DNA from: an uncultured Clostridia bacterium
GTDB lineage: Bacteria > Bacillota > Clostridia > Oscillospirales > Acutalibacteraceae
Length of the DNA: 25,105 nt
Direction: 5' to 3'
Assembly (NCBI GenBank): GCA_946610835.1
Contig: CAMOCU010000001.1
Location: 1-25,105 of the forward strand
The notes beneath the pieces were generated by a model. It was not told the DNA's origin. It ran no database searches and saw only the letters and a program-made list of their open reading frames with translations. Both the position numbers and the translations under genes were made by a program. Shown piece by piece: positions 2,505 through 20,685 of the stretch (position 1 is the stretch's first letter; every line of letters begins with the position of its first letter).

Positions 2505-3572
2505 TCAGAGACAATTAACTGCGTTTTTTAGCTGCTCGAGATCTGTATGTGTATATGTAGCGATGTTGACTTTGACATCTTTGTGCCCCATAAGGCGCAT
2601 GCGCGTTTTTGTGTCGACACCTTTTTTGTTTAGCAGGCTATTATATGTGTGCCGTGTGGAATGCGGGGTTAGCTTTTCTGCATGTCTGGCGGCTATCCCA
2701 AGTTCCTCGATCGTTTGATAAAACGCTTTACGAAGCTGCTTTTTTGTATAGGGCACATATCGGCCTCCTTCGCGTCGGCAGAATATCGCGGCCTGATCGT
2801 TGGCCAAGTGTTTATCTATGTATTTTTGGATTTTTGGCGGGATCGGAACAACGCGATCTTTTCCGGTATCCGTCTTAGAGCCGCCTGTAAGCGTGTGATT
2901 TTTGGAATCATAACTAAACCGTGTAAGAGCACAGAATTCTCCGATTCGCCATCCGGTATAGCACATAACAAGGATCAAATCGGCAATTCCAACGTTCCTT
3001 TCCGCAGCTTTCTCCAAATCCAGCAAATCAAGATCGGAAAAGATTTCTTTCTCTTTTTCGTCTTTTTTGGGCAGCACGATATATGACGCATAGTTTTTGT
3101 TGATTATATCCTGCTGGATGGCGTACTGCTCCAATCGGCCTGCAAGGAGTTTGATATTGCTGAGGGTTGCGTGGGATCGTCCGCTTTCCATCGCTCGGTC
3201 AACGCAAAACTGGAACTGTGCTGTTTTAATCTCTGTAACTTTGTATCGTTTGATCGGCGCAAGCCACTTCCATGCTGCATTGTATACGTATTCCCCCGAT
3301 TTTCCAATCGTCTTGTACGTTATGGTCGACCAATCCGCAAAAAGCTTTTCAAGCGTAATCTGTGCGTTCGGGGCAGGAGGACACAGCCTATATCGGTACA
3401 GTGCTTCGAGTGCTTCTTGTCGCGTTGCGAAATATCCGATGATTTTCCGATTAAAATTACCAAGTTCATCTTCCATTCCCGGCGCTCTGGCAATCCACGG
3501 CTTTCTTCGATTTCCGGACAGCTTTGACACCGATCCGCTGCCGTTTGCGTTTCTCTTGTACTTTTTGGGCAT
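2505..3572 (-). CDS. int: Tyrosine recombinase / phage integrase
   Basis: 355 aa; N-terminal NGSGSV..LSGNRRKPW arm-binding segment; catalytic residues TGWRIGE (R), GSKT (K), PHSTRH (H-x-x-R), MGH, TYTH (Y). Confidence 0.96.
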   Translation of the reverse strand: MPKKYKRNANGSGSVSKLSGNRRKPWIARAPGMEDELGNFNRKIIGYFATRQEALEALYRYRLCPPAPNAQITLEKLFADWSTITYKTIGKSGEYVYNAAWKWLAPIKRYKVTEIKTAQFQFCVDRAMESGRSHATLSNIKLLAGRLEQYAIQQDIINKNYASYIVLPKKDEKEKEIFSDLDLLDLEKAAERNVGIADLILVMCYTGWRIGEFCALTRFSYDSKNHTLTGGSKTDTGKDRVVPIPPKIQKYIDKHLANDQAAIFCRREGGRYVPYTKKQLRKAFYQTIEELGIAARHAEKLTPHSTRHTYNSLLNKKGVDTKTRMRLMGHKDVKVNIATYTHTDLEQLKNAVNCL

Positions 3573-5223: not shown

Positions 5224-5865
5224 TCACATATCGAATTGTACACGAACAACTTTACCGAGCACTTTCACGTTAGTTTCGCGCAGATCGTATTCCTGTACTT
5301 CATGAGCCGGATTCGTAGACAAAGGGATCAAGTATACAATGTTGCCAGTGCGAATGAACTTTTTGACTGTCGCATCGCTATCTCCTACAAGAACGATGGC
5401 AATCTCGCCGTTTTCAACGATGTCCTGCTTACGGACGATGACGATATCATTGTCTTGGATGCGCGCAGCGTTCATGCTGTCGCCAACGATCCGCAGTCCG
5501 AAGTATTCGGCACCCCCGTTAAGCTCTGTCAGAATATATCCCTCTATGTTCTCATCCGCATAAAGCGGTAGCCCGGCACGTACGCATCCAAGCAACGGAA
5601 TTTTGTGCGTTGGATTATATGAAAACGTACCTGGGGTGTCCTCAACATCCTTTTGATCCCATCCCATAAGTTGTTCTGGTGATGAGCCAAGAGCTTGTGC
5701 AAAAGCAATTATTTTGGACTGACTGACATCTCGTATTCCAAGTTCGATTTTGTTAATAGCAGAAGACGTTTTATACCCAACGCGCTCTGCAAGCTCCTGC
5801 TGTGTCAAATTTTGAGCTTCCCTGAGACGTTTAATTCGTTCACCGATTTTCACTGTACGTCCCAC
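5224..5865 (-). CDS. LexA/CI-like prophage repressor (XRE HTH + S24 peptidase)
   Basis: HTH LTQQELAERVGYKTSSAINKIELG; Ala-Gly cleavage site CVRAG; catalytic GDSM and TVKK; implies RecA/SOS inducibility. Confidence 0.95.
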   Translation of the reverse strand: MGRTVKIGERIKRLREAQNLTQQELAERVGYKTSSAINKIELGIRDVSQSKIIAFAQALGSSPEQLMGWDQKDVEDTPGTFSYNPTHKIPLLGCVRAGLPLYADENIEGYILTELNGGAEYFGLRIVGDSMNAARIQDNDIVIVRKQDIVENGEIAIVLVGDSDATVKKFIRTGNIVYLIPLSTNPAHEVQEYDLRETNVKVLGKVVRVQFDM

Positions 5866-16431: not shown

Positions 16432-16985
16432 GAGACCTGTCCGTATATGCAAAAGACGCTGCTGCTGCTGTCGAGATGCGGCACGCGCTCGAAAACTACG
16501 GCATTGAAGTGAACCGGGCGGGGTATGCGCTCTGCCCGTTTCACGACGAAAAGACAGGCAGCCTGAAAGTCTATCCGCACTCGTTCTACTGCTACGGCTG
16601 CGGCAAAGGCGGCGACGTGATCACGTTGGTGCGATCCCTTTTCGATCTGTCGTTCCGCGACGCACTTATAAAGGTCAACGCAGATTTCGCGCTGGGACTG
16701 CCGATTGACAAAAAGCCGACGATCCGTCAGAGGCGGGCAGCGCAGGAGAAACGCCGGGAGCTGGAGCGTGCGCAAATGCACAGACAACGGGCGCACATTG
16801 AAAACTGGGAATCGTATCTGGATCTTGTCGTTGAATGGGAGCTGTGCGGATTATACATCAGAAACTACAAGCCGGTGCCCGGTGACGACACGCTGCATCC
16901 GTGGTTTGTCAAGGCGTTACGACGGCGAGACTATCTGGACTATCTGATGAACAGTTATGTTTTTTACGAGGAGGAAAGCGCATGA
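16428..16985 (+). CDS. CHC2 zinc-finger (primase Zn-binding domain) protein
   Basis: LCPFHDEKTGSLKVY...FYCYGCGKGGDVI. Confidence 0.88.
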   Translation: MRDLSVYAKDAAAAVEMRHALENYGIEVNRAGYALCPFHDEKTGSLKVYPHSFYCYGCGKGGDVITLVRSLFDLSFRDALIKVNADFALGLPIDKKPTIRQRRAAQEKRRELERAQMHRQRAHIENWESYLDLVVEWELCGLYIRNYKPVPGDDTLHPWFVKALRRRDYLDYLMNSYVFYEEESA

Positions 16986-18826
16986 TCTCACTACACGACG
17001 CCACGCCTGCGGATATTGCAGGTATGAATGCGCTTGAACTGCTTGACGGTGATATGCTGCTGAATCTGTACGAGATCGACAACGTCACGGAACGTGAGCG
17101 AATCCGGACTATGCTGCTGGTTCAGGCAAAGATGCTCGGCGTTAAAAAAGAGTTGGAATCCGTACTGCGGCGGTACGACAAAGAACAGTCAGAGATCGAC
17201 CGTGATTACAGCGGATCTGATCGGCACAGAACTGCGTTCTCATTTCAGGATGCCGCCCTCGATTGCGGGAAGTGGATTGCAGACGACGACGGTGTGCGCA
17301 TCGAATCGCGTGACAGCGTTATGCGCTGGGCGTCTCCGATCCCTGTGATCCCTGCAGCGCTTCTGGAGAACATAAGTACCGGAATCGAGAAGGTACAGCT
17401 GGATTTCAGCAAAGGAGATCGTCAGCGCAGTCTGATCTGCGAACGCAGTACGACCGCTTCCGCGACAAAGATCATCAATCTGGCGGACAAGGGATTGGAA
17501 GTAAATTCCGACAACGCAAAGTATCTCGTGCGGTACATCAGCGATGTTATTGCAAAGAACTTTAAGACGATACCGTACAAGGAGGCCGTTTCCGTTCTCG
17601 GCTGGAACAAGCACGGGTTCATGCCTTACACGAAGGAACTTGTTTTTGACGGAGAGCGCGAAAACCGTCATTTGTTCAAAGCGGTGTCAGAAAAAGGAAG
17701 CTTCGAGCGCTGGAGAGAGATCACGCAGGAACTTCGGCAGAACGAAACCTTGCGGATCATGATGGATGCCTCGTTCGCGTCCGCGCTGATCGAGAAACTG
17801 AACGCGCTGCCGTTTGTGTTCCATCTGTGGGGCAAGACCGGCGGCGGGAAAACTGTGTCTCTGTGCCTCGCTATGTCGATCTGGGGCGATCCTCGTCCGG
17901 GCAAGCTGGTGCGCACGATGAACATGACGCAGAATTCCATGCTTGCGACGGCTGCGTTTCTGAACTCGATCCCGTTTGCCGGGGACGAATTGCAAACGAT
18001 CAAAAGCCGCTTGGACAGCTACGATCAGCTCATCATGCGCGTGACCGAGGGCATCGACCGAGGGCGCATGACATACGACCGGAACAACGAGACGAAGACG
18101 TGGCGCTGCGCGTTCCTGTTCACCGGCGAGGAACCGTGTGTCAAACCATCCAGCGGAGGCGGCGTCGTCAACCGCGTCCTGTCCTATGAGAACACTGAAG
18201 ATCTGTTCACGGCAGAATCCGGCAGCACGGTCATGGCGTTCCTGTCTGAGCATCACGGCCACGCCGGCAGGGTTTTTACGGATTATATCGGGACGCAGAG
18301 CGATCTGCCTGAACGCTTCCGCCGACTGACGGGCGAGGTGCGCAGCTTGACCGGCACGACGGACAAACAGGCGCCCAGCATGGCGATGATTTTGCTGGCC
18401 GACCAACTCGCCGGGGAATGCATCTACAAGAACGAGCAGCCTCTCGACGTTGCCGTATCCGCGCGGTACGTGGCGGACGAAAAAGCTGTGGACGTGTCTG
18501 AGCGTGCATACAGGTTCCTGATGGACACGATCTCGCGCAACTATCGCAAGTTTAACCCAAACGATGATCGCTCTACAGATAACTGGGGAGAAGAACGCGA
18601 CGGCTTTATTTATTTTAACGTCACCGTGTTGCGGCAGGAGCTTGAAAAAGAAGGTTATGATTTCGATGCTCTTAAGCAGAATTGGTCGAAGAACGGCTAT
18701 CTTGTAAAAAACAAAGACAGCTATACGCACGTATGGCGCTATTCAGGTGTACGGTCGCGGTGTGTGAAGCTGCGCACGCCGGATGCGGTTGATTTTAATG
18801 AAATGCAGGAGGAGCTTCCGTTTTGA
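16982..18826 (+). CDS. DUF927-domain replication helicase/ATPase
   Basis: RBS GAGGA, ATG 16982; GTFERW-like GSFERW; Walker A WGKTGGGKT; Walker B AGDELQ; GRGR-like IDRGR; FTGE; GGVVNR. Confidence 0.85.
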   Translation: MISLHDATPADIAGMNALELLDGDMLLNLYEIDNVTERERIRTMLLVQAKMLGVKKELESVLRRYDKEQSEIDRDYSGSDRHRTAFSFQDAALDCGKWIADDDGVRIESRDSVMRWASPIPVIPAALLENISTGIEKVQLDFSKGDRQRSLICERSTTASATKIINLADKGLEVNSDNAKYLVRYISDVIAKNFKTIPYKEAVSVLGWNKHGFMPYTKELVFDGERENRHLFKAVSEKGSFERWREITQELRQNETLRIMMDASFASALIEKLNALPFVFHLWGKTGGGKTVSLCLAMSIWGDPRPGKLVRTMNMTQNSMLATAAFLNSIPFAGDELQTIKSRLDSYDQLIMRVTEGIDRGRMTYDRNNETKTWRCAFLFTGEEPCVKPSSGGGVVNRVLSYENTEDLFTAESGSTVMAFLSEHHGHAGRVFTDYIGTQSDLPERFRRLTGEVRSLTGTTDKQAPSMAMILLADQLAGECIYKNEQPLDVAVSARYVADEKAVDVSERAYRFLMDTISRNYRKFNPNDDRSTDNWGEERDGFIYFNVTVLRQELEKEGYDFDALKQNWSKNGYLVKNKDSYTHVWRYSGVRSRCVKLRTPDAVDFNEMQEELPF

Positions 18827-19050: not shown

Positions 19051-19367
19051 TTGTCACGGGTCTGTCACGGGTCTGTCACGGGTCTGTCACGGGTTTTTGA
19101 ACCTGACCCGTGACAGATTGAAAAGCGTGAAAACCGTTGATAAATATAATAAATATTATATATATAATAATGATTATTCTATCTGTCACGACTGTCACGC
19201 CATGTAAAAGGGCCTCGCATGAGAATTCAGGTAAAATTCGCGTTTTTTGTATTTTTTTACATATATCCTCTCCAGACCCGTGACAGTCGTGACAACTGCA
19301 AAAAACGTTGATATATAAAGAAAAATCCGTGTCACGGGTTTTGAATTCCAAACAAAAACCCGTGACA
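19032..19367. repeat. Putative phage replication origin: iterons plus AT-rich unwinding element
   Basis: TGTCACGGGTY x4 in tandem (19052-19095); 12 TGTCACG cores in both orientations; AT-rich core at ~19140-19180; non-coding and directly after the helicase module. Confidence 0.8.
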
Positions 19368-19388
19368 GCATAAAAGTGGTGAAAAAAC

Positions 19389-19910
19389 ATGAAATGCATG
19401 GCAAACAGAAAGCAGGCGGCGCGGTATGCGCGGTCTGAAACGGACAGGATGGTCGGCGCGGCGGTCAGGTATTTCGCGACGGCGACGGCGCTTGTGCTTG
19501 CGGCGCGGTTTTATCAGGACGAACGAAAGATCGAGAGGATCCTGCGGGAATTGTTTCGGCAGTTCGACGCGATCCATGAGAAAAATGTCACGCTGGATGA
19601 TTTCACGGCTGTGCTGCGCGAGGAATACGGATGCGAAACGATGATCGACATGCAATCCGAACCGGAGCAGACGCCTGCCGCGCTGACGGTCGATCGGAAC
19701 CTGCGGACGCTCTGCCGGTGGCTGCTCGACGTCCTGTCCGTCAGTCTGCTTGACAAATTCCGCTGGACGCCGCCGGAGATCAAGCGCCTGCAATCGGAAC
19801 TCAAAACATACGTCCCGGCGATCCTCGCAGGCGGTCAAGACATGCCGAAGCTGCTTCGCAAGCTCGAAACGGATCACGGGATCACGCTCAAGGTGACATT
19901 GGAGGATTGA
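19389..19910 (+). CDS. Hypothetical protein with two internal helical repeats
   Basis: 173 aa; LVLAARFYQDERKIERI and SLLDKFRWTPPEIKRL. Confidence 0.7.
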   Translation: MKCMANRKQAARYARSETDRMVGAAVRYFATATALVLAARFYQDERKIERILRELFRQFDAIHEKNVTLDDFTAVLREEYGCETMIDMQSEPEQTPAALTVDRNLRTLCRWLLDVLSVSLLDKFRWTPPEIKRLQSELKTYVPAILAGGQDMPKLLRKLETDHGITLKVTLED

Positions 19911-19912
19911 AC

Positions 19913-20685
19913 ATGCAGTACATGGGCGGCAAACACTACAGCGCAAGACAGATTACGGAGGTCATCACAAATGCGGTATCAAGGCGGCAAAGCAAGAATC
20001 TCATCGGAAATTTCCAAATTGATAATTTCACGGGGGGGGGGGTACGCTTGTCAGCCTTTTCTGCGGTGCGTGCTCGGTCGAAAGCAAGTCGGCAGAACAC
20101 TTTGACCGTGTGATCTTGAATGACAGAAATCCGTACCTGATCGCGCTGCTGCGCGCGGTGCAGGACGGATGGCAGCCGCCGGATGAAATCACGGAGGAGC
20201 AGTATTATTTCATCCGCGATCGCAAAGACGATATGCAAGCGCTTGCAGGATTTGCAGGTTTTGCGTGCTCGTTCGGCGGGAAATTCTTCGGCGGTTTTGC
20301 TCGGGATAAACGCGGTACAAGAAACTTTGCACGTGCCGGAAAAGTAAGTCTGCTGCGCGATATGCAACCGCTGATGCAGGCACAAATCCTGTGCGGTGAT
20401 TACAGAGACGTACCGATCACAGACGACGCGGTGATCTATGCCGATCCGCCGTACGCGGGGACGACAGGGTACAATCACGAGCGGTTCGACACCGAAGCTT
20501 TCTGGCAGTATGCAAGAGAGATGAGCAAAGATCACAGGATGTTTATTTCAGAGATGAACGCGCCGGAGGATTTCATCCCGGTCTGGCAAAAGCAAGTACG
20601 GCGCGATATGAGCTGTAATGCAGAACAGCGGTGCGTCGTGACCGAAAAGCTGTACATACACGAGTCCCGCGCGGCAGAATTCTGA
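19913..20685 (+). CDS. Dam/D12-class N6-adenine DNA methyltransferase, frameshifted at a G11 tract, with two alternative starts (19913, 19971)
   Basis: N-termini MQYMGGK and MRYQGGK; after the tract motif I SLFCGACSV, ILND, YADPPY (motif IV), FISE. Both starts are currently out of frame with the catalytic body. Confidence 0.88.
20032..20042 (+). repeat. G11 homopolymer (contingency tract)
   Basis: tttcacGGGGGGGGGGGtacgc. Confidence 0.95.

Follow-up and report, generated by a model that had tools for sequence, protein, structure and literature searches.

The 25,105-nucleotide (nt) stretch analyzed here (the window) is the entire contig CAMOCU010000001.1 of an uncultured Clostridia bacterium, one of 345 contigs of a metagenome-assembled genome (MAG) that is 59% complete, and it carries a prophage with a Dam-family adenine methylase locus that is single-copy in that MAG. 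The locus likely constitutes a repeat-driven translational phase switch, that is, a contingency locus with two productive states (A and B) and one silent state (OFF). All of its features lie on the forward strand (+). At least two candidate starts, ATG 19913 and ATG 19971, are found in different frames 5ʹ of a simple repeat, each behind a GGAGG sequence. A Shine-Dalgarno (SD) sequence GGAGG (19901..19905), followed by 7 nt and the ATG at 19913, precedes a first N-terminal segment, head A (MQYMGGKHYSARQITEVI..., starting MQYMGGK; 19913..20031), which is of Q-type after its residue 2. A second SD sequence, GGAGGT (19957..19962), followed by 8 nt and the ATG at 19971, precedes the R-type head B (MRYQGGKARISSEISKLIISR, starting MRYQGGK; 19971..20031) in the +1 frame relative to head A. 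The head A frame overprints head B from 19971 and is open as far as the repeat, and the GGAGGT of head B sits within head A coding sequence, where it is read in the T-E-V codons of an S/T-E-V-I stretch that is conserved in upstream heads family-wide. Head B of the window corresponds to the family consensus. Both heads run into a homopolymer of 11 guanines (G11, 20032..20042) at the junction with the catalytic body (20041..20685, opening GTLVSLFCGACSVE), which was assigned to the D12 class of the Dam family by Pfam PF02086 and a profile match and lies in the third frame. The body contains motif I (SLFCGACSVE, 20053-20082) and DPPY (20443-20454), both invariant in the body alignment of homologues, and ends with the stop codon at 20683-20685.

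The two starts with their strong ribosome-binding sites, the G11 tract and the frame of the body had been described in an earlier note made from the letters of the sequence, and all of these were found to be exact. The frame arithmetic of that note was reproduced when alleles of different tract length were rebuilt in silico: G10 and G13 fused head B to the body (237 and 238 amino acids (aa), respectively), G9 and G12 fused head A (256 and 257 aa), and G8, G11 and G14 joined neither head to the body. In the assembled G11 state, the Y-x-GGK segment and the body are therefore not in one polypeptide. This would be a true OFF state because the stop codons TGA TAA (20020..20025), located in the body frame just 5ʹ of the tract, close the third frame ahead of it in translation. 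The sole callable open reading frame (ORF) in this state starts with GTG and encodes 191 aa (20110..20685, +); the window's methylase is entered in a public protein collection as this very fragment (P0001), which is presumably inactive because it is without head and motif I. G11 is the only homopolymer of at least 9 nt in the 25.1-kb window, in which about 0.015 G or C runs of at least 11 nt would be expected from composition. Decay into a pseudogene was also considered and was rejected, both heads, both SD sequences and all catalytic motifs being intact and the phase of the tract being the sole defect.

The body alone matched PF02086 (D12-class N6-adenine methyltransferase) with an E-value of 1.9e-14 and 54 bits against a cutoff of 22. 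A search of the PDB with the single methylase sequence gave no match; a profile search with the family did match, recovering T4Dam at 3e-9 and Escherichia coli Dam (EcoDam) at 7e-7. Fold tests used homologues that are naturally ON in place of the window's own protein. AlphaFold2 models were obtained for a natural A-ON allele of Flintibacter muris (L061), with a mean predicted local distance difference test (pLDDT) score of 82.5 and values below 50 only in linker residues 25-42, and for a natural B-ON allele (L052), with a mean pLDDT of 86.8. Placement of the head helix (residues 11-20) was confident in either model; residues 1-4 had low pLDDT in both. The L052 model aligned with EcoDam (2g1p) over 209 residues with a Z-score of 17.4 and a root-mean-square deviation of 2.8, and with T4Dam with a Z-score of 17.3 (208-213 residues aligned for EcoDam/T4Dam); the Z-score for Mcbe1 was likewise about 17. 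The L061 model matched the same Dam structures in Foldseek. Both natural forms, A-ON and B-ON, are thus foldable as predicted by these models. In ON alleles the G11 tract would encode the Gly-rich loop that links the N-terminal helix to strand β-1, as placed by the models.

The methylase body has more than 500 homologues among 5.8 billion proteins searched, none above 61% identity, and related genes occur mostly in genomes of Oscillospiraceae, Ruminococcus and other Clostridia. Many homologue entries are truncated ORF calls starting just 5ʹ of SLFCG. The linkers between head and body are repeat-encoded peptides such as GGGG, ERERER and IYIYIY, and the long forms (250-270 aa) have an “...EVINxxSRR[K/Q]” or “SRW[K/Q]” stretch, which is the M-x-Y-Q-G-G-K of head B read one frame over. 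Long and short forms each make up abundant protein clusters. The analysis was extended to a census of viral and genome loci with a SLFCG-type anchor, scanned in three frames, which gave 102 unique loci; metagenome loci were inspected by eye and stand outside the census. Two heads with intact Y-x-GGK were present in 75 of the 102 loci, so that retention of one head with decay of the other, a pattern raised in the earlier note, was not what was found. A simple repeat occupied the head/body junction in 71 of these 75, comprising 52 loci with one repeat (starts 55-75 nt apart, mostly 55 or 58) and 19 with a second G tract between the heads. Within the one-repeat loci, an SD-like match preceded each head in most cases (38/52 and 41/52), so that the double head, the internal ribosome-binding site and the repeat, for which conservation had been proposed as a check, all recur across the family. 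The junction repeats in the census were poly-G (50), GA (24), AG (6), poly-A (2), AT (1) and poly-C (1), with TA repeats in L033 and L034. Since different repeat types occupy the same structural site, this argues for selection for mutability at the junction and not for inheritance of one accident. When loci were clustered at 75% aa identity, giving 30 clusters, two heads and a repeat co-occurred (14/1 vs 7/8, Fisher p = 0.014). From these sequence comparisons, the dual-head design with a repeat is judged to be family-wide and not a local accident; the family includes cultured hosts, namely Flintibacter muris DSM 110149 (L061; G11, A-ON), Ruminococcus sp. YE282 (L038; G8, B-ON) and Acutalibacter caecimuris M00118 (L059; two tracts). 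In the nearest metagenome locus (L192, Ga0326511_10117628; 59%), the G tract is replaced, about 20-60 nt 5ʹ of the anchor, by a repeat that reads RQTD in each of the three frames and fits a 4-nt unit. There an R-type head lies 5ʹ of an H-type head, MHYMGGKH, resembling head A of the window.

Coding constraint was examined in both heads. The head A frame was open from the head B start to the repeat in 51 of the 52 one-repeat loci and the third frame was closed in 52 of 52, the chance of a frame staying open being about 38% per locus, with loci that are not independent. Entropy at codon positions 1/2/3 was 0.70/0.44/1.39 in upstream heads and 0.64/0.40/1.30 in downstream heads. As conservation is codon-periodic in each, the pattern points to purifying selection on each head peptide in its own frame. 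With the third positions of the downstream head free, the overprinted part of the long form is constrained only to stay open, in agreement with the low pLDDT of its linker in the L061 model.

Tract length was variable between close relatives. Loci with bodies at least 95% identical differed in their repeats, from (GA)7 to (GA)14 and from G7 to G11 overall, which answers the suggestion that tract length might be invariant in homologues. Specifically, one such cluster contained (GA)9, 11, 12 and 14, others (GA)7 vs 10, (GA)8 vs 11 and G9 vs G11, and an Oscillibacter MAG with G10 (OFF) was paired with F. muris with G11 (A-ON). A cluster of two-tract loci, again at least 95% identical, displayed eight combinations of (G7-11, G7-10). 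The 52 loci with two heads and one repeat comprised 23 OFF, 21 B-ON and 8 A-ON alleles. All three states of the A/B/OFF switch put forward in the earlier note thus occur naturally, which supports it at the family level, and the OFF state of the window is an ordinary one, being shared by 23 of 52 related loci. The same comparison bears on recoding at the RNA level, whereby slippage in transcription or frameshifting in translation at the G run would produce enzyme whatever the length of the DNA tract. Long homopolymers can cause slippage of the transcribing polymerase, and OFF may be leaky in the poly-G members of the family. However, many relatives have GA, AG, TA or 4-nt-fitting repeats, where recoding is not expected, and it is the DNA tract itself that differs in length between near-identical genomes, so that this explanation is considered very improbable.

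More elaborate architectures were also observed. A pair of G tracts, the first separating the heads and the second preceding the body, is present in L045-L047, L054, L056, L058, L059, L063, L157, L160, L163, L175 and L176, and a single cluster of two-tract loci at least 95% identical includes head-A-only, head-B-only, double-headed (both heads in frame, 264-296 aa) and OFF alleles. L112 and L113 contain two SLFCG-type methylase genes in one locus, the first with two G tracts and a pair of heads that are each out of frame, and the other with a single head, LRYHGGK, and a G8 tract, in frame. In a phage clade with (GA)n repeats (L002-L012, L017 and L020), head A starts with ATT, not ATG, and a T7/T8 tract lies just 5ʹ of head A, behind an ATG reading MVRYFF and about 150-175 nt 5ʹ of the SLFCG anchor. 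The frame of this ATG matches that of head A in L007 but not in L002 and L008. A third homopolymer may gate the long form in this clade.

The two heads share the conserved residues Y3, G5, G6, K7, S8, R9, I10, I14 and I18 and differ at residues 2 and 4. At residue 4, Q-type heads have L, M or Q and R-type heads have Q. At residue 2, 69 of the 75 pairs (92%) combine Q in one head with R in the other, with Q upstream in 59 and the order swapped in 10. Constraint from the overlap of the two frames does not explain this split because it holds in both head orders. Under the usual recognition code, Arg or Lys favors G and Gln favors A. In EcoDam the corresponding motif is K9-W10-A11-G12-G13-K14. The GGK lysine of the heads, taken for EcoDam K9 in the earlier note, is in fact equivalent to K14, and K9 is matched by residue 2 (Q in head A, R in head B). 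This was seen in a profile alignment, the N-terminal part of which is weak (10 bits), and in the structural alignment of the B-ON model (model residues 1-232 to EcoDam 8-270, Z 17.4). EcoDam K9 is one of two contacts to the first base pair of the target, a contact that is not conserved across the Dam family (PMC4417163), and a K9A mutant methylates non-GATC sites (PMC6567924). The corrected mapping thereby narrows the possible change of specificity raised in the earlier note to a hypothesis on a single residue.

These observations are compatible with a switch of specificity, in which the two heads would not be redundant and tract slippage would re-target one catalytic body between two recognition sequences or OFF, with methylation toggled by the tract between a first motif, a second motif and none. 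The Q/R pairing, which is maintained whichever head is upstream, and the alignment of residue 2 with a base-contacting residue both favor such a switch. However, the N-terminal alignment is weak, residues 1-4 were modeled with low pLDDT in both forms, and the Q/R difference may equally affect activity or stability, so that a change of target is regarded as somewhat unlikely. The main alternative, which we hold as a serious if tentative possibility, is that the heads are isofunctional: both forms would recognize the same motif, and the second head would make two of three frames productive, possibly at differing expression. This would accord with the sharing of all conserved residues apart from residues 2 and 4, and with the predicted disorder of the 20 extra residues of the long form. 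There is a precedent in lic2A of Haemophilus influenzae, for which several functional initiation codons 5ʹ of the repeat are described (Dixon et al. 2007, cited in PMC3938747). On the other hand, isofunctional heads leave unexplained both the Q/R split, found in so large a majority of pairs and in both orders, and the absence of homogenizing gene conversion between the two copies.

Several points weigh against the phase-switch reading as applied to this locus. Head A of the window has H-Y-S at residues 8-10, where S-R-I is found in 67-68 of 70 Q-type heads, and residue 10 falls, in the register given by the K9/K14 alignment, at a site where hydrophobicity is conserved in EcoDam and T4Dam; owing to this departure from the consensus, head A may be weakened or impaired. 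The census counts are not phylogenetically independent, and the large share of OFF alleles may also reflect neutral drift in silent prophages. Relatives of the window's phage in the 5.8 billion proteins and in viral, genome and metagenome contigs were all at or below 61% protein identity, and blastn of a phage collection gave no match, so that we infer tract variation in the window's own lineage from other lineages. In an independent gut metagenome run, low-depth Logan contigs stop at 20027 and start again at 20051, none spanning the tract, a break that fits tract heterogeneity or low coverage alike. The source being a contig of an incomplete MAG, the homopolymer length of 11 may be off by one, in which case the window allele would be B-ON or A-ON instead of OFF. 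In its strongest form this last point becomes a separate explanation, namely that the length is an assembly or sequencing error, the true tract being G10 in an ordinary intact methylase read from head B, with head A a relic here. Homopolymer lengths are indeed error-prone in contigs of this kind, and head A is the atypical and head B the canonical of the two. Error is not needed, however, to account for an OFF allele, as OFF is the commonest state in related loci, isolate genomes included; head A retains its SD sequence, ATG, Y-x-GGK and a frame open to the tract; and the architecture of a switch stands even with the length off by one. An error of this kind is hence considered improbable as the explanation of the locus.

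Under the phase-switch reading, the following sequence of events is proposed for a temperate phage whose host is a gut or rumen bacterium of Clostridia type. Two copies of an essential N-terminal segment, consisting of the aromatic-x-GGK motif and the first helix, would be available 5ʹ of one catalytic body. Slipped-strand mispairing in replication would presumably alter the G tract by at least one base. At G10 or G13 the body would join head B and give the short form (237 aa at G10), and at G12 or G9 it would join head A and give the long form (257 aa at G12), in which the overprinted head B region would become a flexible loop of about 20 residues; at G11, as assembled, neither head would be joined and no enzyme would be made. 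Lysogen populations and phage bursts would then be mixtures of short-form, long-form and no-enzyme genomes, the progeny of which would differ in methylation. We infer, for this proposal, the rate of switching in the window's lineage, translation from both starts and a functional difference between the forms.

The locus belongs to a large family of Dam enzymes from gut and rumen prophages, in which, if this proposal is correct, enzyme is made in two of the three frames with a distinct N-terminus in each. The two N-termini show a consistent difference at the residue that, in E. coli Dam, reads the first GATC base. Should the forms differ in target or activity, the design would provide a compact route to epigenetically mixed phage progeny or to modulated lysogen methylomes. 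In the event of a specificity switch, three epigenetic marks could hedge against both methylation-sensitive and methylation-dependent host restriction, and methyltransferase specificity would be diversified in a new way, through the frame-selected exchange of an N-terminal cassette of ~20 residues, a mechanism that would be widespread in phages of gut and rumen Clostridia. The annotation of metagenomes would also be affected, as these genes are now called as truncated ORFs of 191-226 aa. The presence of cultured hosts in the family makes the hypothesis directly testable.

The gene content identifies the element as a temperate prophage, in which the methylase sits where the replication module meets the packaging module. 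The window begins with a host subtilase gene, followed by a tyrosine integrase (2505-3572), a DEDDh-BRCT exonuclease and a CI-like S24 repressor (5224-5865). Next in order are a second methyltransferase of the same prophage, a 513-aa C5-cytosine enzyme (PF00145; 9599-11140), recombination and nuclease genes and a DUF927 primase-helicase (16901-18823). An iteron-rich, AT-rich gap then leads to a 173-aa ORF without a Pfam match (19389..19910, +; ORF list and Pfam scan), the TGA stop of which (19908-19910) leaves a gap of 2 nt to the head A ATG. On the 3ʹ side of the methylase are a small protein with a weak match to sigma-70 region 4, then HNH, TerS and TerL. The iteron-like array (19052-19385) flanks a very AT-rich stretch directly 3ʹ of the primase-helicase gene and contains four copies of TGTCACGGGT with a spacing of 11 bp (19052-19097), as well as others, in either orientation, at 19106-19117, 19276-19286, 19330-19342 and 19358-19368; it looks like a phage replication origin. 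A scan for promoters and terminators around the methylase locus gave results no better than shuffled sequences. Public runs containing parts of the window sequence are gut metagenomes, from sheep, goat and cattle where the host is named.

In comparison with known enzymes, the methylase family resembles EcoDam, T4Dam and DpnM in sharing the same fold (Z ~17), the aromatic-x-GGK segment, an FxGxG-like SLFCG and DPPY, and is closest in sequence to T4Dam, but differs in having only ~20-25% identity to them. To our knowledge, no solved Dam-family enzyme has a duplicated head or a repeat. Simple-repeat ON/OFF switching of methyltransferases is textbook knowledge from the phasevarions (Type III mod, Type I hsdM/hsdS), with which the window locus has in common a repeat in the 5ʹ coding region of an N6-adenine methyltransferase and, as proposed, a heritable and reversible switch of frame. 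Phasevarion genes are two-state, chromosomal, derived from restriction-modification systems of host-adapted pathogens and have one start, whereas here a small orphan Dam-family enzyme of a prophage has two N-termini in two frames, giving two ON forms and OFF. The locus is not classed here as a phasevarion, a name for phase-variable regulons in which host gene expression follows the state of methylation. As far as we know, repeat-driven phase variation of methyltransferases has been recognized almost only in bacterial pathogens, as ON/OFF. A search of the literature for duplicated, frame-offset N-terminal cassettes or a dual-head switch on a methyltransferase found no description.

The naming of contingency loci in phages goes back to a 2025 preprint on T2 agt and T4 rIIA (Gomez, Barrick and Waters, bioRxiv 10.1101/2025.10.21.683753; PMC12633550), which also mentions an earlier, unstudied poly-G in a phage ‘thymine methylase’ gene. 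The likeness lies in hypermutable homopolymers in phage genes serving as bet-hedging; the T2 and T4 tracts are ON/OFF poly-A, and that preprint describes neither a methyltransferase nor a dual start nor a three-state design. In lic2A and lic1A of H. influenzae, starts in more than one frame precede a tetranucleotide repeat, so that more than one phase is productive (Dixon et al. 2007 J Bacteriol, cited in PMC3938747). These genes are not known to have a functional protein motif in duplicate, while at the window locus each start brings its own essential segment, with the downstream copy overlapping the upstream frame. The nearest published case found of a repeat altering methyltransferase specificity is the Type IIG enzyme JHP1272 / HP1353-HP1354 of Helicobacter pylori, in which one homopolymer switches on the gene and another alters the target from GGWTAA to GGWCNA (Krebes et al. 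2014, PMC3936762). Homopolymer slippage thus goes beyond ON/OFF in both systems, but the H. pylori switch uses two tracts and adds a C-terminal target-recognition domain, whereas here a single tract would choose between duplicated N-terminal segments, with a change of specificity as the hypothesized outcome.

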